Origin: Dehalococcoidia bacterium
GTDB taxonomy: Bacteria; Chloroflexota; Dehalococcoidia; SZUA-161; JAUWZY01
DNA length: 64,000 nucleotides
NCBI GenBank assembly: GCA_034414595.1
Contig: DAOULY010000017.1
Span: 75,068 to 139,067 of the forward strand
Direction: 5' to 3'
Under the pieces are notes generated by a model, which was not told the origin of the DNA, did no database searches, and saw only the letters and a program-made list of their open reading frames with translations. Shown piece after piece: positions 2,340-40,471 of this stretch. The position numbers and the translations under genes are program-made. Every line of letters begins with the position of its first letter. Within the stretch, counting starts at the first letter, position 1.

Positions 2340-3521
2340 CTAAGAAGAACCACCAGCTCCTCCAAGCTCTGTAACCTTCGTACCTTGAGAGAAAAGTACC
2401 CAGCTTCCCACCCTAACCAACGTTCTGAAGTGCATTAACATGTTGGTGTACGAGGCATTAGCTAAAGGGCAATAGCACTCCCCAAGCTTAATCCTCGATC
2501 TCAGTTCCTGTGCCTTTGAGTTAAACCACACTTTCCCAAAGTCGTAGCCGACTTCTCGTAGGTTTCCCATCGGTTCTGCTTTTATGCAACAAGCCCAAAC
2601 ATCGCCATCCGGAGCTATGTGAGCTGAAGCAAAGCCGGCATAGCAGGGAATGATCTGGCGTTTCTTGACCAGCACTTCCTCAACCATGCGATAATAATGG
2701 ATACGAAATGCTTGAGTAATCTTGGATATACGCGTAGACTCATGACACCGTATTTTCGGTAGTAAATAATCAATTGCCTTGGTGTAGCTTTTGGGGGAAG
2801 GGGTTATATCGTCTTCTATAGTACACAATTCGACACGCTGTTCGGCAATCTCTGTGATATATGAATCGGGACTGAGCTCGGTCATCACATATTCAAATAT
2901 ATCAGGGATTAAGCTGATATTATACTTTGAAATCACAGTGTGGATGCCCAGTTGAAGATTGTTGTATCTTAACTCTCGCAGGGCATCATAGGTGGTCATT
3001 GCCTTTTCCCAGTTTCCTGGGACTCCCCTAATTTCATCGTGGTTCGAGCCAACGCCATCCAAAGAGAGATTTATGATGATGTTGGTTTTGGGGCAATACT
3101 CTGCAATCTGTCCAACTTGCTCCGGTATAGTATTGCAAAGTAGACCATTTGTCGGAATGTTTATGATACCCGGACAGCAGTTAGCGTAGATGCTGCGGCA
3201 GATATCGACGAGGTCTTTCCTGAGGAACGGCTCGCCCCCGCTGATGGTAAACCAATACGGTGCTTTGCCAAGCGATCTGAAGGTTAGCTCAAGTTCCGCA
3301 AGCGAGAGATCGTCTGCTTTTCTCTTCCACACATGGCATGTCTTACACCTTGAATTGCAAGCGTAAGTGACACTCAAGGTAACGTTGAGGGGCATTTTTC
3401 TCGGATAGCCTATTCCTCGAAATAGTCTATACTGCGGAATCTGTGTCAATAGACCTATCATCGTCGAAAGCCTTTGTTGATGATGCCACTTTCCAGACAT
3501 AGTGCTTCTTTTTCCCACCAT
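2340..3521 (-). CDS. Radical SAM protein with SPASM-like C-terminal Cys cluster
   Basis: CxxxCxxC motif CNSRCKTC near the N-terminus, GGEPFL glycine motif, and C-terminal cysteines (PCYAGF..., WACCIK, GECYCPLA). The annotated start overlaps the upstream GT2 by 95 nt. The true start is probably internal (Met at about 3500, 3461 or 3395). Confidence 0.75.
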   Translation of the reverse strand: MVGKRSTMSGKWHHQQRLSTMIGLLTQIPQYRLFRGIGYPRKMPLNVTLSVTYACNSRCKTCHVWKRKADDLSLAELELTFRSLGKAPYWFTISGGEPFLRKDLVDICRSIYANCCPGIINIPTNGLLCNTIPEQVGQIAEYCPKTNIIINLSLDGVGSNHDEIRGVPGNWEKAMTTYDALRELRYNNLQLGIHTVISKYNISLIPDIFEYVMTELSPDSYITEIAEQRVELCTIEDDITPSPKSYTKAIDYLLPKIRCHESTRISKITQAFRIHYYRMVEEVLVKKRQIIPCYAGFASAHIAPDGDVWACCIKAEPMGNLREVGYDFGKVWFNSKAQELRSRIKLGECYCPLANASYTNMLMHFRTLVRVGSWVLFSQGTKVTELGGAGGSS

Positions 3522-4347
3522 AGAAGTCCACCATGCCCAAAAATCTGGCCCAGAGTTCCAGCATGGCTACCACAGCAGTCCAAAAAACGGATCTGAGGTT
3601 TGGCTGAATACTCTGAATGGCCAACTTCGCAAGTCTCATTGAATTCATGGTCGAGACCTGATAGCGAGTTGTTCTCCGCACATAGAGGTGGCCGCAGTAA
3701 ATACGTCTCCGTTGTGACAGAAAATCGCTGAGGTTCTCCGGTCCTTTGTTGAGAACGCGGGCTTGAGGAACATACTTGATCTGATACCCTTTGTCCCGGA
3801 CGATCTGTTCAATAGAGGCCTCATCTACCGGCGTGTCGATTGGAATCTCGGCTACGATATTCCTAAAAGCAACAAGCTCACCTAGTTTGGGGTCGATGGA
3901 AGCTACTCTATGGTGCAGTTCCCATATAACGTTGGCAGTAAATCCCCAGAAGTGCCGCCGGTCATTCGTGGGAATTGGGCGACCGCCGGTCATTCCAACA
4001 TTGGGCTCAAGAAACGGCAAGCAAAGGTGCTCAATGGTATCTCTCTCGGGAACCGTATCAGCACTTTCTAAAACGCAAATCTCTCCGGTTGCATTTTGCA
4101 GAAATAAATTTATAGCTGAGGCTTTGCCTCTCCTCTCGGGCTCTTCAATCAGTGTAACGCGCGGGTCGGTTTGCTGCTGAGATCTGACAATTTCCGCTGT
4201 TCGGTCGGTGCACCCTGAAGCGACTACTATTATCTGGCTAATCTCAATTTGCTCTGTTTGCTGTGATTGCAGTCCTTGCAATAGCCTGCCGATGTTGGCC
4301 TCTTCATTATATGCACAGATGCCTATGCTCACCCGTAGTTCAGCCAT
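3427..4347 (-). CDS. Glycosyltransferase family 2
   Basis: 306-aa ORF. VSIGICAYNEEANIGRLL, VVASGCTDRT and ESADTVP (DxD-like) are classic GT-A/GT2 features. Confidence 0.8.
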   Translation of the reverse strand: MAELRVSIGICAYNEEANIGRLLQGLQSQQTEQIEISQIIVVASGCTDRTAEIVRSQQQTDPRVTLIEEPERRGKASAINLFLQNATGEICVLESADTVPERDTIEHLCLPFLEPNVGMTGGRPIPTNDRRHFWGFTANVIWELHHRVASIDPKLGELVAFRNIVAEIPIDTPVDEASIEQIVRDKGYQIKYVPQARVLNKGPENLSDFLSQRRRIYCGHLYVRRTTRYQVSTMNSMRLAKLAIQSIQPNLRSVFWTAVVAMLELWARFLGMVDFYGGKKKHYVWKVASSTKAFDDDRSIDTDSAV

Positions 4348-5271: not shown

Positions 5272-5655
5272 AGACCAAGCAAACCTATAAGCCGAGTCCT
5301 GTGCCCATCCTGAGATGGGTGGTGACCATTTATCTGGGATGATGGTTGCCCATCACCTCAAGCGGCCAACCCGAGGGCATAAACCGAGTCCGGGCGTCCT
5401 CCTGCCCTCCTATTTGGCCTTGCTCCGGATGGGGTTTGCCCGCCACCGATGTCGCCACCGGAGCGGTGAGCTCTTACCTCACCTTTTCACCCTTACCCTT
5501 CTTGCCCGTTCATAGGGCGAAAAAGGCGGTTTGGTTTCTGTGGCACTTTCCGAGGGTCACCCCTCCTGGACGTTATCCAGCATCCTGCCCGGCGGAGCTC
5601 GGACTTTCCTCGAGCAGGGCATCCTGCCCGCGGCCACCCGGTTTACTTGGTCAAC
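5272..5655 (-). ncRNA. rnpB: RNase P RNA, bacterial type A
   Basis: The reverse complement contains the conserved blocks GAGGAAAGTCCGAGCTCC (P4), GGTAAGGGTGAAAAGGTGAGGTAAGAGCTCACC, CATCCGGAGCAAGGCCAAATAGG and ACAGGACTCGGCTTATAGG. These closely match E. coli M1 RNA. Terminal P1 pairing is ACCAAGTAAACC / GGTTTGCTTGGT. Ends are approximate (+-10 nt). Confidence 0.93.
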
Positions 5656-5683
5656 AGTAGTTTACCATAAAAATTGTGTACCA

Positions 5684-6103
5684 TCAACGCTCGGATGCGT
5701 CCAGGCAATGTTTCGCCAGTTTGTGAGCTTCCCTATTTTGGCTCCGGGAGACAGGAGTGAGATAGAAGGAGTCAAATCCGTCGAGGAGCAGCCTGGCCTG
5801 CCGAAACAACGGCTTCAGGTGAGCCTTCTTCACTTGGTACTCGCCTTCGAGCTGCTTTGCCACTAATTCCGAATCCAAATTGATAACAACTCGTTCTGCA
5901 CCCAATTTCGAAGCCAACTCCAGGCCAGCGATAACAGCGCGATACTCCGCTTCATTGTTTGTGGCCACTCCGATGTGCTTGGAGAACTTGGCTGCCACCT
6001 TACCTGCCCCATCACGTATCAGCACACCTATAGCTGCTGGCCCTGGGTTCCCCAGGCATGAGCCGTCGACATAGAGGACTAAGTATTTTCCCGCGGCGTT
6101 CAT
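5684..6103 (-). CDS. Ribonuclease HI family protein (RNase H type 1 fold)
   Basis: 139-aa ORF. YVDGSCLGNPGPAA, NNEAEYRAVIAGLELA, VINLDSELV and NREAHKLA give a DEDD-type RNase H signature. Confidence 0.8.
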   Translation of the reverse strand: MNAAGKYLVLYVDGSCLGNPGPAAIGVLIRDGAGKVAAKFSKHIGVATNNEAEYRAVIAGLELASKLGAERVVINLDSELVAKQLEGEYQVKKAHLKPLFRQARLLLDGFDSFYLTPVSRSQNREAHKLAKHCLDASER

Positions 6104-6106
6104 AGT

Positions 6107-6808
6107 TCACTCCAGATATAAGATGCGGCCGCAATTGCTGCACCGCGCAAGCTCCTGCCCTGTTCTGGGCCGCTGCAGCGTTGACATGGGAAGGACCACC
6201 CGACACCCCAGGCACCTTCCTTGCCTGACCTTTGCGACTGCTATTCCTTGTTTCTCCTGGCGCAAAGCGCGGTAGAGTTCTAAGTGTTTCGGATGGATTT
6301 GAGCTGATACCAGAGCCTGCTTCTGATCTAACGCGGCCAGTTCTGTTTTTAACTGCTGCTGCTCTTGCTCCAATTGCTCTTGGTTCCGATGCCAATCTTG
6401 CTCTAACTCCTGCAGTTCACCTCTTTTCTCCTGGAGACTCTGCATGGTTGACTCCAAACCTTCCATAATATCAAGCAGACGGTCCTCACGCTCTCTTAGT
6501 TGTGCTTTGAGGTATTCTGCCTCCTGTTGCATGCTCAGCAGCTCCTTGGGGTTCCGCACCGAGCCCCCATAAAGCTTCTGCTCCAAAGGGGTGATCTTGG
6601 CCTTGAGGTCATCTATTTCCCATTCCATTGCTTTCTGCTTGTGCTCCAGCTCCGCTGCTTCACTTTGTTTCTCCGCTAAAGCATTACGGGCTTGGGCTAA
6701 GGCCTCATCTTGGCCTAATTGCTCTTCCACCTGCTTTAACGCCTCTCTTCTGCGCTCCTGCTCTAATTCGATCTCTTGCAGTTCATATAGCCACTGAATC
6801 ATGCTCAA
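6107..6808 (-). CDS. C4-type zinc-ribbon / coiled-coil protein (COG1579, DUF164-like)
   Basis: 233-aa ORF with a long heptad-rich E/Q/L coiled coil. C-terminal ...GRCLGCRVVLP...CSNCGRILY forms a CxxC...CxxC ribbon. Confidence 0.75.
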   Translation of the reverse strand: MSMIQWLYELQEIELEQERRREALKQVEEQLGQDEALAQARNALAEKQSEAAELEHKQKAMEWEIDDLKAKITPLEQKLYGGSVRNPKELLSMQQEAEYLKAQLREREDRLLDIMEGLESTMQSLQEKRGELQELEQDWHRNQEQLEQEQQQLKTELAALDQKQALVSAQIHPKHLELYRALRQEKQGIAVAKVRQGRCLGCRVVLPMSTLQRPRTGQELARCSNCGRILYLE

Positions 6809-6905
6809 TGTTGTCCATTTGGAGATAACAAAGCCCCATCAGCTTACGTTTGGCAATTATGATGCTACCACAACCGAGGGAGGGAGTAAATCTTTTGGAA
6901 AGTAT

Positions 6906-8135
6906 CTATTTCATTTTGTAGCTTTGGAACATCTCATCAAAGGCGGTAGCAACAGCAAAGCCGAACTCGGGATCGTTAGCCGTAGTATCTATCTCCCTTA
7001 CCTCAATCTCTGGCTTCAGCTTTTGCTTCAACCGCTCTGTAAATACTTTGTCGCACTCGGGGTCGTAAATTGAGCCTCCTTTACCACTGTACGGAGACCA
7101 TCCCCCTTGCAGTGGGATGAGAAATTTGACCGGCCCTTTCGCTTTGTTGAGCTTCTCAGCTATTCTGTCGGCTACCAGGGCTATCTCTTCAGGGCTGGTC
7201 CTTAACCCTGTTCTGACATCATCTTCTATTCTTTTCCTCTTTTCGTACCCAGGAATAGATTCGAGCCTGAGTGGGATTATGACTTCCACCCCGCAAGGCC
7301 CGATGATCTGAGGAAGGCCTCTTCTGCCAGCTACCTCTAACCTGTCAGGGCTCGCCTTTCTATCGCCGCCGCCAATCACCTCGTCGCTTATGGCACCGGT
7401 CGCTAAATCTATCACTCCCTGGAAAAAGCCCTGTTCTATTAGCTCTTCCATGGCCATATCGCCCTCGCCTACTCCGTGGAAGGCGATTACTTGATAGCCC
7501 CTTTGCTCCAGATATTCCTTGATAACTCTTGTCGCCCCTTCGGTAGCGAGCTCGCTGAGCGCAATTAGGGGCTGTTCTGTATTGAGGATGGGCAGCGGTG
7601 AGGCAGCGTCCAACATGCCGCAGATAGCGCCAGCAGCTCGGGAGAGAACATCCTTTATCATGAGATTAAGCCCTTCACCGAAATCTGCCACTGAGGGGAA
7701 GATAACTATATCCTTTGTGCCAATACATTCCGCAGCAAAGTCGCGCCACGTTGCCAAAGAGGTTACTATCAGCTTGGGCAAGCCAAAGGGTAATGTCTTC
7801 ATGACAGTTGAACCCATAAAGGCATTGCTGGCCCCGCCAACAGAGATCAATCCATCCAGTCTATCTGCGGAGAATAGCTCATTGGCCTTCTTTATAGCTC
7901 CGGCTGCCATTACAGGGAGCCCCCTCTTTATTGAAGCTCGGAGCTCCTCGATATTACTACCGCCAGCCTCGGCCACCTCTTCACAGCTGATATCGCCTTT
8001 TGTTGACGGCTGTTCTTTCAGGCTTAAGTCGATAACAATGACTTCACAGCCTCTATTCTCTATCTGTTGTTTTAGAAATGTTATTTCGTCTCCCTTACTG
8101 TCTAATGTACCAAGAATTACTATTGTCTTGGGCAA
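6906..8135 (-). CDS. UPF0261 / Tm-1-like ATP-binding domain protein
   Basis: 409-aa ORF. The N-terminus MPKTIVILGTLDSKGDEITFLKQQIENRGCEVIVIDLS is the typical UPF0261 start. Confidence 0.65.
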   Translation of the reverse strand: MPKTIVILGTLDSKGDEITFLKQQIENRGCEVIVIDLSLKEQPSTKGDISCEEVAEAGGSNIEELRASIKRGLPVMAAGAIKKANELFSADRLDGLISVGGASNAFMGSTVMKTLPFGLPKLIVTSLATWRDFAAECIGTKDIVIFPSVADFGEGLNLMIKDVLSRAAGAICGMLDAASPLPILNTEQPLIALSELATEGATRVIKEYLEQRGYQVIAFHGVGEGDMAMEELIEQGFFQGVIDLATGAISDEVIGGGDRKASPDRLEVAGRRGLPQIIGPCGVEVIIPLRLESIPGYEKRKRIEDDVRTGLRTSPEEIALVADRIAEKLNKAKGPVKFLIPLQGGWSPYSGKGGSIYDPECDKVFTERLKQKLKPEIEVREIDTTANDPEFGFAVATAFDEMFQSYKMK

Positions 8136-8168
8136 TTCACCTCCTGTGTGCCGGGTAAGAGCAGGAGC

Positions 8169-9245
8169 CTACCCTAATTGACTCTTTTGCCAAGCCTCCA
8201 TCAATACCTCCATTGAGGCTTGGGGACTCTTGCCTGCCCTTTCTTTGATCATATCGTGCAACGAAATGATATCCTTAAGCCAAGAGATAAGCGGTTTCAG
8301 CTCCTCCAAATAGATTTCGCCAGCTGGCCGGCCTGTCTTGGTTGCCTTAATGACAGAGGTTGTCGCTGACATCCCGCTCATCATAGCAGCGCCGATGCCG
8401 TCATTGAGACCTGTGCAAAAGCCAGCGGCATCGCCGATCAGCATCACATTTCCCTTCGCTGGGATAAATGAGCCAGAGGCCAGGTCAGTATAGAACGCTG
8501 AGATGCGACAGCCGTCTTTCCAGGCGGGCTTTCGCTTGGCGTCGAAGCCATATTCCGCCAACATCCGTAATATGTCGTCCCGAAACTCCTTTTTCCCCGT
8601 GGCCCCAAGCACGAAGAAATCACCCTTGTGATCGATCTGAAATCTGGGCCGGAGGGTTAGTCTGGGATGGAACCAATGAAAATAGTCCGTCTCGATGGCC
8701 AATGCCCCTGGATAGCACTCCCGATAGGATGGATGAATGTTAAGGCTGAGCCCTGGGAATATGGACTTTCTGACCACAGAGGTAGCACCATCGGCCCCGA
8801 TGACGAACTTGGCTTGCAGCTCCTGTCGCTCTCCTTGCCTCACAAGTTTAACTGTGTATCCGTCTTTGCTTTGGCTGACGCCGGTGACCTTGGCTTCGTC
8901 CCAGATCTCCACACCTTTGTCTGCCGCCTTTCGGTTCATCCAATGATCGAGGTCGCTTCTCCAGGCGAGGGGTGTAAGCACGTCCATTTTTTGTGGTGCC
9001 ACCCCCGGCATGTGCACCATATGGCCAGTCAGATAATAGGGGGCGACCAGCACTTCCTTGGGAATTTCCCCGTACTCCTCGCGGATGGCGTCATAGGCCC
9101 ATGGCCTCATCACCATCCCTGAGCACACCTTTTCGCGGGGCAGCTTCAGTCTCTCCAGCAGTAGCGTCTTGAAACCATGCTCAACGCTTTTCTTGGCCGC
9201 AATCGAGCCTCCAGGGCCACCCCCGACCACAATTACGTCCAACAT
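8169..9245 (-). CDS. FAD-dependent oxidoreductase, geranylgeranyl-reductase-like family
   Basis: 358-aa ORF. It has the dinucleotide-binding motif DVIVVGGGPGGSIAA, KVCSGMV, and the C-terminal GDAAGF motif. Confidence 0.65.
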   Translation of the reverse strand: MLDVIVVGGGPGGSIAAKKSVEHGFKTLLLERLKLPREKVCSGMVMRPWAYDAIREEYGEIPKEVLVAPYYLTGHMVHMPGVAPQKMDVLTPLAWRSDLDHWMNRKAADKGVEIWDEAKVTGVSQSKDGYTVKLVRQGERQELQAKFVIGADGATSVVRKSIFPGLSLNIHPSYRECYPGALAIETDYFHWFHPRLTLRPRFQIDHKGDFFVLGATGKKEFRDDILRMLAEYGFDAKRKPAWKDGCRISAFYTDLASGSFIPAKGNVMLIGDAAGFCTGLNDGIGAAMMSGMSATTSVIKATKTGRPAGEIYLEELKPLISWLKDIISLHDMIKERAGKSPQASMEVLMEAWQKSQLG

Positions 9246-9531
9246 GTCTCCACCTCCCTAAGTTTATTTAGCTGTGAAGCCCTTCCCTTAATCCAAAATA
9301 TATTACAACTATGCTGTGTAGGCAAGTATCAGCGTTAGCAATAATGCCGCAGCATGTGTAGATAATGGCCAACACAGCCTGGCAGATCACATCAACGGGC
9401 TGCTATCCCAGTCAGAGTGGGCACGGTATTGGTGAGCTATTTCTTAGCCCGACAATGGAGCCCACTGCCAAGCAAGCGCCTGGTGCCTTTTTTCAGAGAG
9501 CTATTTTGCTCAGAATTTTAAGAGGCCAGGA

Positions 9532-12501
9532 TCATCTGAATAAGCCCTTCCCCTTTTCCCCTGGGGGCCCCTGAGGTCCTGGGGGTCCTTGTGGTCCAGG
9601 CTCGCCCTTGTCGCCCTTGGGACCTGCGGGTCCTTGTGGCCCTTGGTCTCCCTTCTCGCCCTGTGGCCCTGGAGGCCCTGCGGGTCCAGGTTCCCCCTTG
9701 TCGCCCTTAGGTCCTGGGAACCCTTGTGGCCCCTGGTCTCCCTTTTCGCCCTGTGGCGCTGGAGGCCCTGCGGGTCCAGGTTCTCCCTTGTCGCCCTTTG
9801 GTCCTGGAGGTCCCTGTAGCCCCTGGTCTCCCTTCTCGCCTTTAGCTCCTGTAGTCCCCTGAGTATTGATCATGGTGAAGGTGGCCGATACCTTGTCGCC
9901 TTGACTTTGGGCTGAGATTGCATAGTTACCCGGTGTGCTTGAGGGAAGTGTAATTATGGCTGTGAAACTGCCATCAGGATCGGTAGCAGCATGGAGTGGA
10001 ATGGTAGGCAGCTCTGTACCATCTGCAGCAATTGCCACCTTTGAATTTCCTGAAAGACCCGTACCGCTTACAGTAGTAACTCCAATTCCTTTCTCGGGAG
10101 AGAGCACTATCTTGGGGACTATAGTGAAGACGTCCTCAGTTGAGGTCGGCTTTGTAGTTATATAGTGCTCGCCGATAGTGCTGGGAGGGACAGCAAAGGT
10201 GGTCTGGAGACTGCCCTTATTATCGGTAATGACTGTAGCTACTTCCTTGTCATCATACCATATGGCAACTCCTCCCGGAGGAATTCCGGTGGCAGTGACA
10301 GTGACTATAGTTCCCACGGGGCCAGTGGCAGGAGATGCAGACAGTTTGGGAGATACCACAAATGTCTCCATGCTCGGCTCTGAGCCAGTGGTTATTTGGT
10401 GCTCTCCGGAAGCACTATCCGGAATGGTAAAGGCAGCTTTGAAACTGCCTTGTTCATCGGCAACTACGGCAGCCATTTGCTCTGCATCATATTTGATAGA
10501 GACCTTCCCCGGAGAGAAACCTGTCCCTATAACTGTCACCTCCATACCCACAGTTCCATTGGGGGGCTCTATGACGAGCTTGGGTGCTACAGTGAAGGTC
10601 TGCTCAGTTGATGGGGGCTCAGTGGTCACCTTATGCTCGCCGACAGTGCTGGGAGGGACAGCAAAGGTGGCCTGGAAGCCACCCTTATTATCGGCAGTAG
10701 CGGTTGTTACCTCTTTATCATCGTATCTCAGGGAAATCCTTCTTCCCGGGGCGAAGCCAGTGCCAACAGCCTTCACCTCCATTGCCACAGTTCCTTGTTG
10801 AGGCTCTATGCCGAGGTTGGGTGGTACAGTGAAAGTCTGCTTGGTTGATGGGGGCTCGGTAGTAACCTCATGCTCCCCAACGCTGCTGGGAGGTACAGCA
10901 AAGGTGGTCTGGAAGCTACCCTTATTGTTGGCAGTAGCCATGGTTACCTCCTTATCGTCATACCTGATGGAGAATCTTTTCCCCGGGGCGAAGCCAGTGC
11001 CGTTGGCCTGGACCTTCATAGCCACGGGTCCGCTGACAGGTTCTATAACGAGCTTAGGGGTTACGCTGAAGGTCTGCTCAGTTGATGGGGGCTCAGTGGT
11101 CACCTTATGCTCCCCAGCAATAGCCGTAGGTACAGCGAAGGTGGCTTGGAAGCCTCCCTCATCATCGGCGGTAGCGGTCGTTACCTCCTTGTCATCGTAT
11201 CTGATGGAAAACCTTTTGCCTGCAGGGAAGCCAGTGCCAACGGTCTTAACATCCATAGCTACAGGTCCGCTAAGGGGTTCTATGGCAATCTCGGGTGTTA
11301 CAGTGAAGGTCTGCTCAGTTGATGGGGGCTCAGTAGTAACCTTATGCTCACCGGCGGTGCTGGGAGGTACAGCGAAGACGGACTGGAAGTCTCCTTTATT
11401 ATCGGCGGTAGCGGTTGTTACCTCCTTATCATCGTACCTCAGCGACACCTCGTCCGGGGCGAAGCCAGTGCCAACAGTCTTAATCTCCATGGCCACAGGT
11501 CCGGTGACTGGTTCTATGACAATATTGGGTGCTACAGTGAAGGTCTGTTCAGTTGATGGGGGCTCAGTGGTCACCTTATGCTTACCAGCGGTGCTGGGAG
11601 GTACAACGAAGACGTCCTGGAAGCGCCCCTCATTATCAGCAGTAGCAGTTGCTACCTCCTTGTCATTATATCTCAGGGAAACCTTGCCTGGGGCGAAGTT
11701 CTCCCCGATGGTGGTGACCTCGGTACCCACAATCCCCGCAGCAGGCTCAATTTGGGCAATTCTGGGTATTAAAACAAAAGTCTCCACGGTAGATTTGGGG
11801 CTGGTAGTTATCTTATGTGCTCCGGCAATAGTTGGAGGAGCTTTGAAAGCTGCTTGAAGATCTCCCCGGTTATTGGCTTTAGCTGTGGCTACTTCCTTGT
11901 CATCGTATCTGATGGATACTTGTTGTAGAGGGAAACCTGATCCGGTAACTTTGATCTCTGTCTCCGCGATACCAGAAGTGCAATCGATGGCAATCTTAGG
12001 GACCACTTCAAAGGTTGCTGTAGTGGACACGGGGGTTGTAGTTATCTGGTGCCCTCCGGCAACACTCGGGGGAATCTCAAAAGTAGCCCGGAAAGCTCTC
12101 ATATCATCAGCATTGGCTACTAATATCTCCTTGCCATCATATTTGATGGAGACTGCTTTCGGAGGGAAATTAGTCCCACTAACTGTGACCTTCGTCTCTA
12201 CCGGGCCGGTGGAGGTGTCTATGTTGATTTGGGGGACCACAGTAAACTTTGTGCCACTGATCTCATTTGTGGCCAAGTCCTCCAGAATCACGCGGTAGTT
12301 GCCACCTACTGTAGGTGGCACAATGAAAGTATCCCTGACCTTATCCCCGGTGGCTTTTCCCACTTTCAAAGGCTCTGTACCGACGCTATTCCAGTAAATG
12401 TTGTATTCCCCGTCGGATGTGCTGAGCGTTCCTGACAGCACTATTGAAGCTCCGACTGGGCCAACTTTGGGATCGACGGAAGCGATGAGTGTCTCATCCA
12501 T
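9532..12501 (-). CDS. Repeat protein: 11 tandem IPT/TIG-like (Ig-fold) repeats plus a C-terminal collagen-like GXY region; putative surface or fibre protein
   Basis: 989-aa ORF with a GAGGTG RBS 5 nt upstream of the ATG. Eleven units of about 79 aa each contain G.GF.PG..S.RYDDKEV....A...G.F...F.VPPS..GEHKVTT.P. About 35 GXY triplets form the extreme C-terminus. No recognisable signal peptide, TM helix or sorting motif. Confidence 0.85.
9535..9860 (-). repeat. Collagen-like triplet-repeat coding region (about three 90-bp units)
   Basis: Translation: [105 protein letters not shown]. The repeated 30-aa unit is visible at DNA level. Confidence 0.85.
10160..11820 (-). repeat. Tandem in-frame repeats of about 237 bp (central IPT-like units) inside the repeat-protein CDS
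   Basis: Antisense shadow ORFs restart at 10165, 10396, 10633, 10870, 11107, 11344 and 11578, a period of 231-237 nt. The protein motif [17 protein letters not shown] recurs in consecutive units. Confidence 0.8.
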
Positions 12502-12527
12502 GAGTCACCTCTGGTATTATTTATGTT

Positions 12528-12557
12528 AGTATACTTATATTGTTATCAATTTGTCAA
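12528..12557 (-). promoter_or_regulatory. Candidate sigma70-type promoter of the collagen-like repeat-protein gene
   Basis: The minus strand reads TTGACA (12557-12552), an 18-nt spacer, then TATACT (12533-12528), about 27 nt upstream of the ATG at 12501. Confidence 0.45.
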
Positions 12558-14352: not shown

Positions 14353-15102
14353 CTATTTGGCAGAGGCTTTGAGTATTGATTGGCCTAATTTTTGCAAATC
14401 GTGCTCTGAGAGGGAGACCAATGGTTGAGCATTTTGGATGAATCTGGTCAGCTCGTGCAGGCGCAGTGTAGGTACAGTCGGATTCGTCAGCTCCAGTTGT
14501 ACCGATGGATTTACAAATACACAAACCGGGCTTACCGGCAGGTTGAGTCGAGCTGTACGTTGCACGAAATAGCTGAGGTCTGAGGCATTGCGCTTTACTT
14601 GGGCGCTGATGCTATCCATGGGCATAGTCTTCTTAGCCCCTCGCCTCCTCCTATACCATTCGTCTCCTTTGCAAACGATCGTGCCAGAGTAGTTCTTGGC
14701 TTCAATGACGAATACCCCTTTTGGTCCCAAGATGATATGGTCGATGTCACCTCTTCCGCCAGGTAATACAATCCCATTAAGCAGATAATAGGAGTCATCC
14801 AACCTTTGCAGTGCTCTTGACACCACCTTTTCACCTCTGACTCCTGCGTTCCAGATGTGGTACCGCCGGAGGAATGCAGTGCTGAGCGCCAAAGGAGCCC
14901 AGCCGATAAGGAGCAGCCACCATGTGAGCCAGACTCCCAGCACAAACAAGCTGATGCTGAACGCTACCAATATGGCAAATATACTCAGATTACGCCTCTT
15001 GTTGGCTTCTATATATGGATTCTTGACTTCTCTAAGCACCCTCATTCTCGGAATTACCTCTGCTTTATGTCTACGATTCCTTGTGCTCTCGGGATTCCTC
15101 AA
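14353..15102 (-). CDS. NERD (nuclease-related) domain protein with N-terminal TM helices
   Basis: 249-aa ORF. Two hydrophobic helices (ILVAFSISLFVLGVWLTWWLLLIGWAPLAL) are followed by GDIDHIILGPKGVFVIEAKNYSG. The track start overlaps the upstream gene by 32 nt. Met at about 15045 is a likelier start. Confidence 0.6.
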   Translation of the reverse strand: MRNPESTRNRRHKAEVIPRMRVLREVKNPYIEANKRRNLSIFAILVAFSISLFVLGVWLTWWLLLIGWAPLALSTAFLRRYHIWNAGVRGEKVVSRALQRLDDSYYLLNGIVLPGGRGDIDHIILGPKGVFVIEAKNYSGTIVCKGDEWYRRRRGAKKTMPMDSISAQVKRNASDLSYFVQRTARLNLPVSPVCVFVNPSVQLELTNPTVPTLRLHELTRFIQNAQPLVSLSEHDLQKLGQSILKASAK

Positions 15103-16213
15103 GGGCTGGCTGCTCTTCCCTTAACAGCCGGCGTGCCGTGACCAAGAGCACCGCCAGGATACAGGGGATGGGCGAAAACAGATAGTGATAGACCCCTCCC
15201 ACAATGGCTGGCATGCCGAATGGGGCGCTCTCAATAAACCCCAACGCCAGTGTAACAACACAAGCCAGCACCACTCCTGCTCCGAAGCCATACCAGGGGT
15301 GTTTTCTGTCTGAATATAGGATATCGGCACAGACCTTGGCTCCCGCCGCCAGGGCGCAGACGAAGGCAACCATGCCAGGGACACCCAGGTTCGCATAGAT
15401 TTCTAGGTACAGGCTATGTACGTGGAGGCCTTCGCCTCCGAAGTTGATAGTTCCTGACTCGAGCGGCCAGCAGCCCAAGCCCAGTCCTGTCCAGGTGTGG
15501 GAGCCTGTCATCAGTTCGAGTGTGGGAAACCAGCGCACAATCATCCTGACCTTGATGCTTGACAGGAGGAATAGCCTCCCCAGGGAGCCTTGGCTGTGTG
15601 TGAAAACAAGGACCACAGCTATCAGGGCCGAGGCAAAAAGCCCGGAGATGACGCGCAACACCAGCCTTTGTCTGAAAACGACAACACCGATGGCGATGGC
15701 TGCTACTATGAATGCCCCTATGCCCAACCCGCTGGGGAAGTCGGCTGCTCTATTGGCTTGTATTGGGGCGATTATGAAGAATGCAATCAGCCCTGCTATA
15801 GCGAAGGGGAATCCTATCTTCAGCATACGGACAGGAGCGGGATAATTCACCAGGGAATAGTAAGCTGCTGTCAGTACCAGGAAGCTCTGGAGAGCACCCA
15901 CGCCGACTCGGCGGTCCGGCGACACCACGATGCCCAGGATTACGCTTATCAGGAAAAGCACTATGGGGATGTCGAACGGGGTGCGCTGTGTCAAGCGGCC
16001 GCTCCTGGCGAGCCGCACCGGGAAATAGGCCAGGGCTAAGGCCAATATCAGCCAGGGGAGAAAGGTGGGCCAGTTGAGGAAGATGGCAGCATGCACCAAG
16101 CAAGCAGCAAATATCAGCCAGATGAACTCTGTTGCCAGAAAGAAATTGCCTACCTTAGCTAGGTTCGCTGAAAACCCAGTATTCCTCTGATCGGGAATCC
16201 CTTCATCGGCCAT
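15071..16213 (-). CDS. O-antigen ligase / Wzy_C-domain polytopic membrane protein (WaaL / PglL / polymerase-like)
   Basis: 380-aa ORF with about 10 hydrophobic segments. The loop motif GEGLHVHSLYLEIYANLGVPGMVAF resembles the Wzy_C signature (H..yL....E.G..G). Confidence 0.6.
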   Translation of the reverse strand: MADEGIPDQRNTGFSANLAKVGNFFLATEFIWLIFAACLVHAAIFLNWPTFLPWLILALALAYFPVRLARSGRLTQRTPFDIPIVLFLISVILGIVVSPDRRVGVGALQSFLVLTAAYYSLVNYPAPVRMLKIGFPFAIAGLIAFFIIAPIQANRAADFPSGLGIGAFIVAAIAIGVVVFRQRLVLRVISGLFASALIAVVLVFTHSQGSLGRLFLLSSIKVRMIVRWFPTLELMTGSHTWTGLGLGCWPLESGTINFGGEGLHVHSLYLEIYANLGVPGMVAFVCALAAGAKVCADILYSDRKHPWYGFGAGVVLACVVTLALGFIESAPFGMPAIVGGVYHYLFSPIPCILAVLLVTARRLLREEQPALEESREHKES

Positions 16214-16369: not shown

Positions 16370-17311
16370 GTGCAAATGCGACGGAACTGGATTGAAAGAG
16401 ACCTCATCATCATCGTTGTCCTGACGCTCGTTCTCATTCTGATCATAGCAGCATTTCCTGTGACGGCGCTACGTCTTATCTTAGGACTGCCCTTCCTTCT
16501 TTTTTCCCCAGGGTATGTCTTGATTGCGGCTCTATTTCCCAGGAAGGGAAGCCTAGGTGGCCTGGAACGGATCGCTCTTAGCTTCGGACTGTCCATCGCT
16601 GTAACTCCGCTTATCGGGCTTATCCTCAACTATATGCCGTGGGGCATAAGGCTTTACCCCATCCTTATAGCGCAGGCTCTCTTCATCGTCGCTATTGCTG
16701 GCATCACTTGGTATCGGCGCAAGAGACTTCCCCAGGAGGAGCGCTTTTCAGTCCCCTTTCTGTATCGGCTGCCGAGCCTGAGTTGGCACGGTGAGAGCCG
16801 CTGGGATAAGTTGCTCATAATTTTCTTGGCCGTTTCCATAGCAGGGGCTACAGGGACATTCATCTATACTGTTGCTGTGCCCAAGGATGGAGAGAAGTTC
16901 ACCGAGTTCTACATCTTAGGCAGCAATGGCGAGTTTGACGGCTATCCCACGGAGTTTACACTGGATGGCACTGGGCAGGTAATCCGTGTCAAATATGACT
17001 ACCAGGACGGTGCAACTGAGGAGGACGAAGACACGGGCGAGGTAGTCTTATCCGTGGTCAACAGGGAGCAGGGGAGAACGGACTACCGGATCGAGCTTGT
17101 GATTGGTGGCGAGCCGAGCCAGATAGAGTTGGATGGCTGGCACGATGAACTTTCATTCTCGCTTGATGATGGAGATAAATGGGAGCATGTCATCGGTTTT
17201 GCTCCTCAAACGGTGGGGGATGACCAGAAGGCGGAATTTCTGCTGCTTAAGGCTGACGAGAGCGAGGCTGCACCTTCCATTCACCTTTGGATCGATGTTA
17301 AACAGGGATAA
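16370..17311 (+). CDS. DUF1616-like membrane protein
   Basis: 313-aa ORF. N-terminal TM helices with LILGLPFLLFSPGYVLIAALFP and LSFGLSIAVTPLIGLILNY, then an acidic soluble C-terminal domain. This layout is typical of DUF1616. Confidence 0.5.
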   Translation: MQMRRNWIERDLIIIVVLTLVLILIIAAFPVTALRLILGLPFLLFSPGYVLIAALFPRKGSLGGLERIALSFGLSIAVTPLIGLILNYMPWGIRLYPILIAQALFIVAIAGITWYRRKRLPQEERFSVPFLYRLPSLSWHGESRWDKLLIIFLAVSIAGATGTFIYTVAVPKDGEKFTEFYILGSNGEFDGYPTEFTLDGTGQVIRVKYDYQDGATEEDEDTGEVVLSVVNREQGRTDYRIELVIGGEPSQIELDGWHDELSFSLDDGDKWEHVIGFAPQTVGDDQKAEFLLLKADESEAAPSIHLWIDVKQG

Positions 17312-21639: not shown

Positions 21640-23517
21640 ATGGGTAAACTCACTTCTCTGTGGTCACAAGAGAAGATTGATGTAATCGCCGCCATAGCAG
21701 GACTTCTACTCGGTATTGTGATTTCCTGCCTTAATTTCATCTACTCCAATGCCTATTTGATCACAATAGGGCCGCTGCTGGCAGCTGCTTGCCTGCTCTA
21801 TTTAGTATTCCATCGGAAGTGGCTCCTTGCGCGGCAGTATCCCGAGGCAAATAGGAGGCTCTTTCTTGTAGCAGGCATCATCTTCTTTATTTCGTTTGCC
21901 GTGGCCACGTACAGTCTACACACCGGGTTCCTTCACCGCCCCGTGGTTTATTTCATTCTGACCGCAGTAGCTGCCTCAATGATAGCGGTTCAAATCCTCT
22001 GCTACCGTAATAAAAGCGCTGTCTACCTGATCTTGTTTGAGATACTCCTTCTTTCCCTGAGCGTAACGGCCAGTGCCTACTGGGTATTCCCCTCCCTCCC
22101 CGGCGTCGACACCTGGTTTCATAGGGAATATATAAGAACCTTTGTGGAGCATGGTGGTATCCCCGATAGCAGCGCTCTGCCTCAGGTTATAGGGGAATAC
22201 TATCTTCATTTTCCCATAATGCACTTGAGTGCAGCGGCCATCAAGCTGGTGGGCGGGATTAGCTATAAGGCGGCAATGTTTCTCGGCGTTAGCTTACCCA
22301 CAATGCTGAGCAGTCTATTTGTGTTCTTGATTGCTCGCAGTCTGGCGAACACCCGGGTGGGGTTACTGGCAATCCTGCTGTTCAGCCTCAATAGCTATTT
22401 CCTCAACTATTGCATTGCCCCAATACCCAACAGCTTTGGAGTTGCTCTGTTCGCCATGGTGCTCTATCTACTCATCAGAAATACTGTTCCCAGGGTAGTG
22501 TTCGTCTTTTTAACTATCCTGCTGCTCATGGTATTGATTATAACCCATACTTTGTCCTCCTTTGTCATGCTCTCTTTTCTCCTGGCTCTCTTGGTCGGGA
22601 TCTATGGGTACAGGCTCATACGCAAAGAGCGAGCTGCTGCTGAGATGAACATAGTCACTCCCGCATTGGTGGGCTTATTTGGGGCGGCGATGCTGAGCTA
22701 CTGGATATATGAGGCTTATTTGGGAGGCGGTTCATTCTTCAATACGATGGCCTCAGCCCTTTTCCGTGAAACGACCGTAGAGGCAGGCTTTGGGCAATAC
22801 GAGTTGACAATGAGTGGAGGAGGCCAAATCTTGAACATCTTAGGTTTCTTAGTCCTGCTGTTTTTCGGCGTTTTGGGATGTTTGTTATGGCTCTCCCGGG
22901 AATACCTGAGCAAGACGAAGACAGGGCTAATTGCTACGCTTATCGTGTTGCTGGGTATGCCTCTTGGTCTTGCTGCCTTCGGAATAGAAGCCCTTGTGCC
23001 TGACAGGTGGTTTGCCTTTAGCTACGTTGTTCTAACTATGGTGGCGGCAGTAGCCATGCTCACGGTGACCTCCCACTTAGGCTATCGCTGGCTGGGCAAC
23101 ATATCGTTGATAGGTATCGTGTTCGTCGGCTCCTTCTTCATGATTAGCAACAAGATTTCCAATGCGGATAGCCCAATTTACACTCCTGAGTTGATCCGGA
23201 GACTGGCATACACCAATGCTGAGCAGGCGATGGCAGAAAAGATTGTAGCAGTCTATGATGATATAATTGTTACTGATCTGGACTATGAGATAACTGTTAT
23301 TAAGGCGTACTTAGGAAGGATTCATGATTTGGATTATAGAATGTTGGATGGAGAATACTTGAGCAGTGGGTTGGTTCTTTGGAGGAACGTGATGGCGGAG
23401 CGTCCGGTTAGGGTTCCTTCCTCCATTGTGCTGGGAGAGGGCTTCCAACAAGAATTGGATAGCTCGTGCCATCTGGTTTACACCAATAACGATGGTAAGG
23501 CATATTTAGCCAGGTGA
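21640..23517 (+). CDS. Large polytopic membrane protein, GT-C-fold-like (putative glycan polymerase or lipid-linked-sugar glycosyltransferase)
   Basis: 625-aa ORF with at least 12 hydrophobic segments. An early loop has an acidic/aromatic motif (PGVDTWFHREY), as in GT-C enzymes. The soluble C-terminal domain is about 130 aa. No WWDYG motif was seen. Confidence 0.45.
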   Translation: MGKLTSLWSQEKIDVIAAIAGLLLGIVISCLNFIYSNAYLITIGPLLAAACLLYLVFHRKWLLARQYPEANRRLFLVAGIIFFISFAVATYSLHTGFLHRPVVYFILTAVAASMIAVQILCYRNKSAVYLILFEILLLSLSVTASAYWVFPSLPGVDTWFHREYIRTFVEHGGIPDSSALPQVIGEYYLHFPIMHLSAAAIKLVGGISYKAAMFLGVSLPTMLSSLFVFLIARSLANTRVGLLAILLFSLNSYFLNYCIAPIPNSFGVALFAMVLYLLIRNTVPRVVFVFLTILLLMVLIITHTLSSFVMLSFLLALLVGIYGYRLIRKERAAAEMNIVTPALVGLFGAAMLSYWIYEAYLGGGSFFNTMASALFRETTVEAGFGQYELTMSGGGQILNILGFLVLLFFGVLGCLLWLSREYLSKTKTGLIATLIVLLGMPLGLAAFGIEALVPDRWFAFSYVVLTMVAAVAMLTVTSHLGYRWLGNISLIGIVFVGSFFMISNKISNADSPIYTPELIRRLAYTNAEQAMAEKIVAVYDDIIVTDLDYEITVIKAYLGRIHDLDYRMLDGEYLSSGLVLWRNVMAERPVRVPSSIVLGEGFQQELDSSCHLVYTNNDGKAYLAR

Positions 23518-24622: not shown

Positions 24623-25504
24623 ATGAAGGTACTGATCTTGGGTGTTGCTGGGATGCTGGGGCACAAGCTATATCAGGTGCTATCGCCAGCATTTGATGTG
24701 GCTGGTACCATCAGGGGTGACTACGGTGATATCGGCAGATACGGTATCTTTCGCCAAGCTGAGATAATTCCCCAGGTCAATGCTTTCGAAATATCCCGAC
24801 TGGAGGAGGTGGTCGAACGAGTCGGCCCTGAGGTGGCGATCAACTGCATCGGGATCGTGAAACAGCTACAGGACGCGCAAGATAGACTGGTCAGCATCTG
24901 GGTGAATTCGCTATTTCCTCATCAACTGTATCAGATCTGCCGAGCAAGAGGAGTTAGGCTGATTCACATCAGCACCGATTGTGTCTTCTCAGGTGAGAAA
25001 GGTAACTACCGCGAGGACGATCCATCAGACGCTGAGGATATCTATGGGAAGACCAAGTATCTTGGTGAGCTCAGTGGAGAAGGGACGCTGACGATAAGGA
25101 CCTCGCTTATCGGCAGGGAACTCTCAACCGCAAACGGCCTGGTGGAATGGTTTTTGTCCAACCGGGGCAACAGGGTTAAAGGGTTTGCCAATGCCATCTT
25201 CAGTGGGTTCCCCACTATTCACTTCGCCAAGATTATTGGTAATATAATTGCAGACCATCGCGACTTGAGTGGCGTTTATCACATCTCATCTGAGCCCATC
25301 AGCAAGTTCCAGCTTCTCCTCATGATGCGAGAAGGAATGAGGCTTGATATTGATATCGAGGAAGACGGCAGCTTTCGCTGTGATAGGAGTCTGGACTCAA
25401 CTCTTTACCGAGCAAAGACCGACTTCAGACCACCCTCCTGGGAGGACATGATCGCTGAGCTGGTTCAAGACGCCCGGCAGTATGAACAATGGAGAGCAGG
25501 ATGA
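24623..25504 (+). CDS. RmlD-type (dTDP-4-dehydrorhamnose reductase family) nucleotide-sugar 4-reductase
   Basis: 293-aa ORF. MKVLILGVAGMLGHKL Rossmann start, ISTDCVFSG and YGKTK (YxxxK) are present. Position next to an FnlA/WbvB-like dehydratase. Confidence 0.7.
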   Translation: MKVLILGVAGMLGHKLYQVLSPAFDVAGTIRGDYGDIGRYGIFRQAEIIPQVNAFEISRLEEVVERVGPEVAINCIGIVKQLQDAQDRLVSIWVNSLFPHQLYQICRARGVRLIHISTDCVFSGEKGNYREDDPSDAEDIYGKTKYLGELSGEGTLTIRTSLIGRELSTANGLVEWFLSNRGNRVKGFANAIFSGFPTIHFAKIIGNIIADHRDLSGVYHISSEPISKFQLLLMMREGMRLDIDIEEDGSFRCDRSLDSTLYRAKTDFRPPSWEDMIAELVQDARQYEQWRAG

Positions 25505-40470: not shown

Positions 40471-40471
40471 A

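Follow-up and report, generated by a model that had tools for sequence, protein, structure and literature searches.

The open reading frame at 9532..12501 of the window (by which we mean the whole 64-kb stretch of DNA analyzed) encodes a 989-amino acid protein in which tandem Ig-like domains lead into a C-terminal collagen-like region, without an export signal or a membrane anchor. The gene is real, and it is a conserved but rare gene of sediment Chloroflexota. In the explanation that we favor, to which we assign a probability of about 0.4, the protein, lacking a leader, would assemble in the cytoplasm as a homotrimer: three Ig arms on a collagen stalk that ends in a basic-hydrophobic foot. 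The architecture, its conservation, the leaderlessness and the lack of phage context are established here, as is the homology of the module comprising unit 11 and collagen to proteins anchored in the membrane at their C-terminus. The features of the gene, all on the minus strand, are as follows.

12528..12557, minus strand: sigma-70-type promoter, TTGACA-18 nt-TATACT, 11 of 12 consensus matches
12505..12512, minus strand: Shine-Dalgarno sequence AGAGGTG, read from the sequence, 4 nt 5' of the ATG
9532..12501, minus strand: coding sequence with ATG start, leaderless Ig-repeat and collagen protein of 989 aa
12232..12480, minus strand: unit 1, aa 8-90, divergent N-terminal cap Ig domain, presumed distal tip
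11764..12225, minus strand: units 2-3, aa 93-246, Ig domains kept position by position in orthologs
10582..11754, minus strand: units 4-8, aa 250-640, expandable central array, each with TTEPPST
10114..10575, minus strand: units 9-10, aa 643-796, conserved proximal Ig domains
9868..10107, minus strand: unit 11, aa 799-878, divergent Ig domain, always directly before the collagen
9544..9858, minus strand: collagen-like region, aa 882-986, 35 Gly-X-Y triplets with one Gly>Ala (APQ)
9535..9552, minus strand: C-terminal foot GKGLFR, family motif [KR]x[KR]G[LI][FL] at or near the C-terminus

Reading frame and Ig-like units

The near-consensus promoter and strong ribosome binding site of the original prediction are both present, and the promoter (12557..12528) is by far the best of three promoter-like sites in the 3.6 kb scanned. 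An in-frame TGA (12507-12505) overlaps the Shine-Dalgarno sequence and lies two codons before the ATG, so that no cryptic upstream start is possible. At seven orthologous loci there is likewise a strong Shine-Dalgarno sequence, with an in-frame stop 1-32 codons upstream of the start, and a hidden start with a signal peptide is thus ruled out. An artefact of assembly is also ruled out for the fiber gene, as the independent assembly Logan SRR14802572 matches window positions 5582-10171 at 100% identity, with the APQ triplet and the stop codon included.

A self-HMM divides the protein into exactly 11 units, the number that had been predicted, and each is 76-83 aa long (i-Evalue 1e-18 to 6e-42). 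Units 1-5 correspond to aa 8-90, 93-168, 171-246, 250-325 and 328-403, and units 6-11 to aa 406-482, 485-561, 564-640, 643-718, 721-796 and 799-878. Unit 1 is only 20-29% identical to the other units, and T28, G31, Y33, W37, G48 and A50 are invariant or nearly so in unit 1 of the orthologs. Units 4-8 are mutually 61-82% identical (74-83% at the DNA level), and account for all five copies of TTEPPST in the protein. Unit 11 has many invariant columns among the orthologs, extending from G805 to A873, and is a candidate trimerization or registration domain.

In the AlphaFold2 models every unit is a beta-sandwich of seven strands, for which pLDDT is mostly 80-93 and, in unit 11, somewhat lower at 67-88; a two-domain model that includes unit 1 has a pLDDT of 93.6. 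Foldseek searches with full-length and two-domain models returned generic tandem-Ig neighbors only (TM 0.3-0.49), these being tandem Ig receptors, intimin, Bap, SiiE and viral IPT/TIG or Big-1 proteins, and gave no functional clue. No match to the Ig part was found in the PDB by sequence search. According to the models the fold is a generic seven-strand Ig-like sandwich. The repeats had been described as IPT/TIG-like. The Ig-like fold is supported by the models, but the TIG assignment is not: Pfam TIG (PF01833) has no match to the protein even at E<=1, and the homologs have only 'faint' precomputed TIG matches. The significant domain model is instead NCBIfam NF058592, 'PGS family Ig-like domain', at 95.3 bits against a cut-off of 45 and over seven stretches; Big_6 scores 27.2 bits, slightly below its cut-off of 27.6.

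The collagen-like region and the C-terminal foot

The predicted run of about 35 Gly-X-Y triplets is confirmed by count. Eleven triplets (aa 882-914) and 23 triplets (aa 918-986) are linked by the single APQ triplet, and Pfam Collagen (PF01391) matches at 57.5 bits against a cut-off of 27.2. There are four KGE, six KGD and five GPP triplets, and the C-terminal end is GPP-rich. Salt bridges of KGE and KGD, and nucleation at the C-terminus, have been described in collagen (PMC11923368). Taken together, the Pfam score, the ten KGE/KGD triplets and the GPP-rich end make the segment look genuine, and its composition appears favorable to a triple helix. The collagen part has a pLDDT of about 30 in the monomer model, as expected for a single chain. 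From its sequence, then, the protein is probably a homotrimer formed through this segment, in agreement with the trimer originally suggested.

The chain ends GEKGKGLFR. Three to six residues follow the collagen at the extreme C-terminus, and the foot of the window protein is only about six residues long. That nothing follows the collagen holds for the window protein, but the short tail is a conserved motif of the family; in some relatives it is prolonged as an amphipathic helix, and in two small ones a TM anchor replaces it. All the family tails keep [KR]x[KR]G[LI][FL], or else continue as an amphipathic helix with a polybasic terminus. The C-terminal segments of P0010 and P0121 are strongly amphipathic, and P0007 has a longer non-collagen tail than the window protein. 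Net charge of the tails is +2 to +4, with the exception of P0007 at -1, and their hydrophobic moments are 0.45-0.95, with P0141 at 0.22. These moments may be compared with values of 0.38-0.40 for MinD tails. A MinD/FtsA-type C-terminal membrane-targeting sequence is a short, amphipathic and basic peptide that binds anionic membranes, and the family tails may be of comparable type. Among the ORFs of about 300 kb of DNA (the window plus the other loci) no other ends in this motif, and a general sorting signal thus seems improbable.

Relatives and the absence of targeting signals

Our search for homologs with the same C-terminal placement of collagen found about 15 relatives, all from metagenomes or Chloroflexi MAGs (those of Guaymas Basin included), and all leaderless and without a TM anchor. 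The orthologs are single ORFs of 499-1598 aa that differ in length through the number of units, and identity within the family is 48-69% over the full length. The GC content of the family gene follows that of each host contig, from 50 to 61%, and we conclude that the gene has long been resident. The nearest relatives of the Ig repeats are found in cellular surface proteins of Chloroflexota. Some 230 more distant relatives of the repeats were also found; nearly all the full-length ones have a signal peptide and many have a C-terminal TM anchor.

A domain like unit 11 lies beside collagen in P0359, P0360 and P0361. P0360 and P0361 are small metagenomic relatives comprising a signal peptide, one unit-11-like domain (to which unit 11 is 44% and 42% identical, respectively) that leads straight into collagen as in the window protein, and, at the C-terminus, a TM helix that bears a basic tail. 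They differ from the window protein in the signal peptide, in the single Ig domain, and in that the TM helix and its basic tail stand where the window protein has the KGKGLFR foot. Their collagen runs directly into the TM helix, and this marks the C-terminus of the collagen as the attachment end. The genomic context of P0360 gave no clue.

Prediction of signal peptides and TM helices rests on hydropathy. The highest 19-residue Kyte-Doolittle mean in the window protein is 1.38, so there is no TM helix, and the protein contains no LPXTG, Tat motif or lipobox. The 15 family members have neither an N-terminal hydrophobic region nor a C-terminal TM helix by hydropathy; the top 12-residue value in the first 70 aa is at most 1.84 in the family, against at least 2.1 in nearly all the full-length relatives. 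The absence of signal peptide, TM helix and sorting motif that had been claimed is thus upheld by hydropathy and motif scans alike, and is kept throughout the family. Charged residues make up 17.8-20.4% of the family proteins, compared with a median of 10.1% in 147 signal-bearing relatives, although the family fraction nonetheless lies within the upper quartile of the exported relatives. We propose that the family derived from signal-bearing, TM-anchored Ig-repeat surface proteins of Chloroflexota and lost both signals. In the best explanation the protein is predicted not to be a Sec substrate, since both targeting signals have been lost.

The loss of both signals relative to the wider family might be taken to indicate a decaying, functionless relic of a surface-protein gene. 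That reading is effectively refuted by conservation. The ORFs are intact in about 15 divergent sequences, in which the N-terminal cap, unit 11, the collagen and the tail are all conserved, at the identities given above, and the gene has a strong Shine-Dalgarno sequence and a near-consensus promoter.

In a sister clade the protein is divided. The divergent loci L010 and L021 encode it in three ORFs, all leaderless; the division falls at the F|G strand boundary of unit 9, and both downstream ORFs start with the missing G-strand motif. The arm ORF of this clade reaches 1907 aa, and ORF1 and ORF2 lack collagen and tail. A split placed exactly at a beta-strand boundary suggests strand complementation between the ORFs, with assembly in the cytoplasm; the downstream ORFs carry the missing G strand, so that the parts must meet where they are made. 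The leaderless three-ORF split and the shift to charged residues together argue for cytoplasmic assembly, and not for a surface location or non-classical export.

Export, phage particles and the genomic neighborhood

The neighbors of the gene in the window encode rubrerythrin, an FAD oxidoreductase, DAG kinase and glycan functions. A UPF0261 protein is another neighbor, with close relatives at 78-85% identity on metagenomic contigs, and the window also has a MacB/FtsX gene 50 kb from the fiber gene. At other loci the gene lies among the housekeeping genes RuvABC, RNase III, HypA and PlsY, and also type IV pilus genes. All-against-all BLAST of the flanking ORFs of eight loci revealed no conserved neighbor, and matched nothing beyond generic PAS kinases, giant surface proteins and a pair of unrelated TM-anchored proteins with signal peptides. 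None of about eight other family loci shares a neighbor with the window.

The protein had been proposed to reach the surface by a non-classical route. In this account unfolded chains would leave the cell by virtue of a C-terminal signal, using a T1SS-like system or a novel Chloroflexota one, to give a cell-surface fiber; the slow-folding collagen would trimerize only outside, the basic foot would hold the fiber on the envelope, and the fiber may be O-glycosylated. We consider it doubtful, though several observations favor it. The repeat family otherwise comprises exported surface proteins, and the module of unit 11 and collagen occurs in exported, TM-anchored form. The protein resembles the T1SS adhesins (SiiE, LapA-type) in being a leaderless, acidic (pI 4.9), Cys-poor (one Cys) rod of tandem Ig repeats in which Gly-rich repeats lie toward the C-terminal end. 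SiiE, Bap and intimin are among its structural neighbors. The conserved motif at the extreme C-terminus could be a signal, and surface fibrils typically vary in their number of repeats. It differs from those adhesins in lacking RTX repeats (no GGxGxD motif was found in the protein) and an adjacent ABC/MFP system, in having collagen in the place of the secretion signal, and in its Chloroflexota host. At none of roughly eight loci is there a gene for an exporter, ABC/MFP or other, within about 10 kb of the family gene. The C-terminal motif is unlike a general sorting signal, and a signal placed there could not carry ORF1 and ORF2 of the split loci.

Glycosylation fares similarly. The glycan locus that had been noted is present, with a Wzy_C gene at 15071-16213 and a nonulosonic-acid locus nearby, and this would be in keeping with a glycosylated surface fiber. 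Its link to the gene is not supported, however, as about eight other loci of the family share no neighbor with the window, and none has the glycan locus beside the gene; its proximity is probably a coincidence. The recurring 14-residue motif that had been thought suited to O-glycosylation forms the F-G beta-hairpin of the Ig fold in the model, and not a flexible Ser/Thr linker. With both targeting signals lost, glycosylation by the neighboring glycan locus is unlikely.

The remaining account retains assembly in the cytoplasm but makes the protein the fiber or spike of a particle encoded elsewhere (a virus, tailocin or GTA-like element), in which the foot would be the point of docking to the particle, or to the particle's membrane, and target cells would be bound through the Ig arms. 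Leaderless collagen-like proteins that are known are mostly phage fibers or spore appendages, and elements of the GTA type keep fiber genes at separate loci. The gene stands alone, in a different context in every genome, and the modular arm and base ORFs with alternative bases at L010 and L021 recall the logic of phage fibers. Most families among the 25 PHROG matches listed are tail or tail-fiber families, but all the matches lie in or next to the collagen (aa ~805-987) except for one that is marginal (E 3e-4, aa 612-644) and to a family of unknown function. The Ig part has no match by tblastn in 50,697 phage genomes (INPHARED), and IMG/VR gave a match to the collagen only and none to the Ig part. 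Pfam searches with the larger ORFs of the window revealed no gene for a capsid, tail, terminase or integrase, and the precomputed annotation of the other loci shows none. Moreover, the GC content is fully host-adapted and the nearest Ig repeats are cellular. We therefore regard a particle encoded elsewhere as improbable. A prophage, or a tail fiber within one, is rejected for lack of phage context in the window and at about eight loci and of phage homology beyond the collagen, save for the marginal match.

A proposed three-armed trimer and its relation to known fibers

We return to the cytoplasmic homotrimer. The chains would be made and assembled there, with folding nucleated at the GPP-rich C-terminal end of the collagen, at the conserved unit 11, or at both. 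The 35 triplets would form a triple-helical stalk of roughly 30 nm, at the end of which the three short basic-hydrophobic tails (KGKGLFR) would act as a foot, by which the stalk is predicted to be held on an anionic surface, a membrane being the most plausible. From the stalk there would extend three arms, each of 11 Ig-like domains and roughly 40 nm long. The central units 4-8 would be a length-setting array that grows and shrinks between lineages, and the distinct N-terminal cap domain at the tips of the arms would make distal contacts. The finished fiber would lie on the cytoplasmic face of the membrane, or be exposed only after release from the cell. Some considerations count against this model. 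We know of no bacterial Ig-repeat or collagen fiber with an intracellular role outside spores and phages, and all the characterized contexts of NF058592-type repeats and bacterial collagens of which we are aware are extracellular.

A broader and rather unlikely extension would be a cell-encoded Chloroflexota fiber system, neither viral nor of spores, built in the cytoplasm from parts that are all leaderless. An Ig-rod 'arm' and a trimeric 'base' (unit 10, unit 11, collagen and foot) would be fused, as in the window, or joined by donor-strand complementation of a split Ig domain, as at L010 and L021. Such a system might be a membrane-tethered intracellular scaffold, or might leave by an export or release route new to the phylum.

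It is instructive to compare the protein with characterized fibers. Scl1 and Scl2 similarly have an N-terminal non-collagenous head, a Gly-X-Y stalk with charged KGE/KGD-type triplets and no hydroxyproline, and a C-terminal attachment end (PMC8968730). They have their own signal peptide, an LPXTG anchor and a helical V-domain head, whereas the window protein has neither leader nor anchor, and 11 Ig-like domains per chain. The NCBIfam models for Scl1/Scl2 and Lcl (NF038330, NF038329 and NF046116) align with the collagen part only, at 64.7, 64.4 and 90.1 bits, where cut-offs of 400, 325 and 500 apply and none is reached. Collagens of the exosporium and spore appendages of the BclA type are leaderless, being assembled in the cytoplasm of the mother cell and then displayed at the surface (PMC8968730), and spore collagen-like fibrils of Bacillus and Clostridioides are treated in PMC12357932 and bioRxiv 10.1101/2023.10.23.563578. 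BclA is of the reverse polarity, with an N-terminal anchor and a C-terminal globular (C1q/TNF-like) head, in an endospore former; the window protein has nothing globular after the collagen and an Ig domain at the N-terminus, and its relatives are in Chloroflexi MAGs. Phage tail fibers and capsid binders with collagen are also leaderless trimeric fibers, but similarity to them is confined to the collagen save for the marginal match. PRD1 P5 and SPP1 gp12 are examples of phage proteins with collagen-like segments. The Chloroflexota and archaeal surface proteins with NF058592, annotated as IPT/TIG domain-containing, share the same repeat (1063 representative clusters at E<1e-30). Unlike the window protein they have a signal peptide, many with an FN3-like module and a C-terminal TM anchor, and no collagen.

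Known bacterial collagens are classically signaled adhesins, spore appendages or phage fibers, and none of these classes accommodates the present family, which is cellular, leaderless and of opposite polarity to BclA, and which combines a collagen stalk with long Ig rods borrowed from Chloroflexota surface proteins. In the literature library that was searched, no paper links collagen-like proteins, Chloroflexi and signal peptides. The collagen segment, short and charged, without hydroxyproline and with a minimal C-terminal cap, would be of interest for recombinant collagen design. The split-gene relatives provide a natural test of assembly by strand complementation outside chaperone-usher pili. 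If the protein is exported, it would point to a so far unrecognized route of secretion in a major phylum of sediments that is poorly represented in culture. If it is intracellular, it would to our knowledge be the first bacterial intracellular scaffold of collagen and Ig domains.

The gene and its product

The fibre gene begins with an ATG that is preceded by an AGAGGTG Shine-Dalgarno sequence, and an in-frame TGA lies two codons upstream of it, so there can be no longer N-terminus. A cryptic upstream start with a signal peptide is thereby excluded. The near-consensus promoter and the strong ribosome binding site of the original prediction are confirmed.

9532-12501, minus strand: open reading frame, fibre coding sequence of 989 aa
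12557-12528, minus strand: TTGACA-18-TATACT promoter (promoter scan, 11/12 matches)

A strong Shine-Dalgarno sequence and an in-frame stop 1-32 codons upstream of the start are also found at seven orthologous loci. Antisense ORFs of 207, 349 and 141 aa lie within the fibre gene (10178-12298, plus strand) and recur antisense to its orthologues; most simply, they are a by-product of repetitive, conserved sense-strand codons, and not genes.

A self-profile made from one unit picks out 11 units, no more and no fewer, each 76-83 aa long (i-Evalues 1e-18 to 6e-42). NCBIfam NF058592 ('PGS family Ig-like domain') recognizes the domain with 95.3 bits (cut-off 45), and Pfam TIG has no match to the protein. 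Thus the repeats, first described as IPT/TIG-like, are Ig-like, and the TIG assignment falls away. Given a 10-sequence alignment, AlphaFold2 models all eleven as seven-strand β-sandwiches with pLDDT mostly 80-93, lower in unit 11; units 1-2 modelled separately reach 93.6. The divergent caps, units 1 and 11, share 20-37% identity with the other units. An intermediate group, units 2, 3, 9 and 10, shows position-by-position conservation across orthologues. Units 4-8, which are 61-82% identical in protein and 74-83% in DNA, make up a young array. Each of these five contains TTEPPST, which in the model runs from the last part of strand F through a short loop into the first part of strand G. This motif, originally proposed as suited to O-glycosylation, is therefore predicted to belong to the Ig fold, as an F-G β-hairpin, and not to a flexible linker.

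The collagen part comprises Gly-X-Y runs of 11 and 23 triplets with one APQ triplet between them, making 35 triplets with a single Gly to Ala change, and only LFR follows. It scores 57.5 bits with Pfam Collagen (cut-off 27.2), and is unstructured as a single chain in the AlphaFold2 model. It contains 4 KGE, 6 KGD and 5 GPP triplets, of which KGE and KGD make stabilizing inter-chain salt bridges (PMC11923368).

The maximum 19-residue hydropathy is 1.38, and a motif scan is negative for LPXTG, Tat, lipobox and RTX motifs. Over window positions 5582-10171, collagen tail included, an independent Logan assembly gives the identical sequence. Together with the self-profile, the Pfam score and the hydropathy and motif scans, it confirms a protein of eleven repeats and a collagen tail with no classical export signal.

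A collagen-tailed family and its relatives

A word-indexed search yielded ten proteins of the same plan, 45-64% identical. An exhaustive HMMER search added P0094, P0095, P0121 and P0141, a search with units 10-11 added P0359, and further copies lie at loci L009 and L018. Every member comes from a metagenome. Only two of 185,579 species-representative genomes contain relatives, the Chloroflexi MAGs B9_G15 (Guaymas Basin; two paralogues) and B1Sed10_194, and no more than 8 loci were confirmed when 241 million metagenome records were scanned. Nowhere are the proteins annotated beyond 'hypothetical protein', and our literature search found no paper linking collagen-like proteins to Chloroflexota. 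A UPF0261 (Tm-1-like ATP-binding) protein in the window (6906-8135) has relatives of 78-85% identity only on metagenomic contigs, and the next tier lies at 47-52%; this gap places the organism in a poorly sampled lineage.

The single-ORF members have 499 to 1598 aa and 7-37 triplets. In all of them the first residues, M-x-[ED]-T, already lie in strand A of unit 1, and the collagen is followed at the C-terminus by [KR]x[KR]G[LI][FL] or a longer variant; in P0010 and P0121 this terminal segment, the foot, has helical extensions. Conservation excludes a decaying relic of a surface-protein gene.

C-terminal tails of family members (examples)
RRGIFSIFSRRG
RRRGLLAGLSAILFR
KKKGLFNIMSLFE
KRKGLFESVVAEAQ...
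EALIERVVRRVVEEIIGEFIERQYKVKKRKK

The repeat itself is highly abundant: a search at E<1e-30 gives 1063 representative clusters. Outside the collagen-tailed clade, sequences and hydropathy reveal an N-terminal hydrophobic leader in nearly every full-length member, and many leader-bearing relatives also have a C-terminal TM helix followed by a basic tail; the leaderless exceptions are mostly fragment-like. Leader and TM anchor are therefore missing from the same proteins that have gained the collagen tail. Charged residues (D+E+K+R) make up 17.8-20.4% of the leaderless proteins, compared with 10.1% (median; interquartile range 7-16) for the 147 relatives that bear a signal, whereas Ser+Thr+Asn are fewer, at 21.5% against 29.3%. 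This composition hints at a cytoplasmic environment, without proving one.

Two small relatives, P0360 (L022:3431-3955; 174 aa) and P0361 (213 aa), run from a signal peptide through one unit-11-like Ig domain and 15-20 Gly-X-Y triplets to a C-terminal TM helix with a basic tail. The module of unit 11 plus collagen thus also occurs as a stalk that is exported and tethered to the membrane at its C-terminus, so that the collagen C-terminus is the attachment end and the Ig side is distal. The two are minimal membrane-anchored collagen stalks, kin to the C-terminal part of the window protein.

In a sister clade (L010:3951-10971 and L021:2964-10114) the fibre protein is divided among three adjacent leaderless ORFs.

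ORF1, 1907 / 1896 aa: arm; stops directly after strand F of the unit-9 equivalent (GEHRITT...)
ORF2, about 200 aa: short extension, G-strand motif xFxVxP, unit 10', unit 11', no collagen
ORF3, 274 aa: extension, G-strand motif, unit 10, unit 11, collagen, KKKGLF tail

The two arm ORFs sit in separate 50%-identity clusters, and the same split point in two such divergent loci makes an assembly error unlikely. The arrangement suggests that the arm may be joined to its base by donor-strand complementation, and that ORF2 and ORF3 may be alternative bases. As none of the three has a leader, the parts would have to meet in the cytoplasm. The original prediction was of non-classical export; a version of it in which unfolded chains would leave by an unrecognized route reading a C-terminal signal and assemble outside is a rival reading, somewhat less probable than cytoplasmic assembly.

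Genomic surroundings

The window gene lies between a rubrerythrin gene upstream and an FAD oxidoreductase gene downstream, with DAG kinase, NERD nuclease, Wzy_C and DUF1616 genes nearby. At the other loci the neighbours are unrelated housekeeping genes (RuvABC, RNase III, HypA, NifU, PlsY) and, once, type IV pilus genes. No neighbours are shared between the window and the other loci, or among the latter, and the GC content of the fibre gene tracks that of the host contig, from 50 to 61%. It is thus a long-resident, free-standing gene with its own promoter.

The pilus genes accompany the gene for P0007 (arrangement at L005:4115-9379; also L006 and L007). There the fibre gene and a cluster of type IV pilus or T2SS-like genes (T2SSE ATPase, T2SSF, N_methyl pilin) are divergently transcribed, and a 2234-aa PKD-repeat protein comes after the fibre gene. 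None of the other fibre loci shows this arrangement.

The possibility of a prophage tail fibre was examined. PHROG matches fall within aa ~805-987, the single exception being a marginal one to a family of unknown function; tblastn of the Ig part against 50,697 phage genomes gave no match, and IMG/VR gave nothing but one collagen-only match. With housekeeping neighbours at other loci, a phage fibre is rejected. That the protein is the fibre of some particle encoded elsewhere in the genome we consider improbable.

A large glycan locus occupies 15071-55256.

15071-16213, minus strand: Wzy_C-type protein
16370-17311: DUF1616 protein
25489-26529: PseB-like dehydratase
31553-32665: DegT aminotransferase
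37356-38825: B12-radical SAM enzyme
38866-40470: NeuB-cytidylyltransferase fusion
40460-41821: GT2-cytidylyltransferase fusion
52397-53893: Wzx-type flippase
53994-55256: UDP-glucose dehydrogenase

With several GT2/GT4 genes, it looks like a nonulosonic-acid glycan pathway; a 625-aa ORF inside it (21640-23517) has no Pfam match at E<=1e-5. A functional tie to the fibre gene had been suggested, but no such genes flank its counterparts at the other loci, and the adjacency looks coincidental. Separately, the ORFs of a radical SAM/SPASM enzyme (2340-3521) and a GT2 glycosyltransferase (3427-4347), both on the minus strand, overlap; these may be a peptide- or glycan-modification pair unrelated to the fibre gene.

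Proposed assembly and likeness to known systems

The reading we favor, with a probability of about 40%, is a leaderless homotrimer. The protein would trimerize in the cytoplasm through its collagen stalk, its basic-hydrophobic C-terminal foot would attach to an anionic surface, for which a membrane is the most plausible candidate, and each of three Ig arms would carry the specialized N-terminal cap, unit 1. A collagen residue spans 0.286 nm and an Ig domain about 3.5-4 nm, and on these values the stalk would be about 30 nm long and each of the three arms about 40 nm. As a lead, the charge and hydrophobic moment of the foot may be like those of short membrane-targeting peptides, among them the MinD peptide. 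Equally, the foot or the helical extensions of P0010 and P0121 could nucleate C-to-N folding of the triple helix; the C-terminus is the nucleation site of collagen folding (PMC11923368).

Of the known systems, the window protein comes nearest to Scl-type adhesins, with which it shares the order of head, collagen stalk and C-terminal attachment (PMC8968730). However, it lacks both leader and LPXTG and falls far short of the equivalog cut-offs, so it is not classed with them. Leaderless assembly is common to it and to BclA and spore-appendage fibrils, but its polarity is opposite and its host does not form endospores. By HMM score it belongs in the PGS Ig-like domain family, without the targeting signals usual there. 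We rate it among the bacterial collagen-like proteins, where it may represent a new cytoplasm-assembled modular fibre system.
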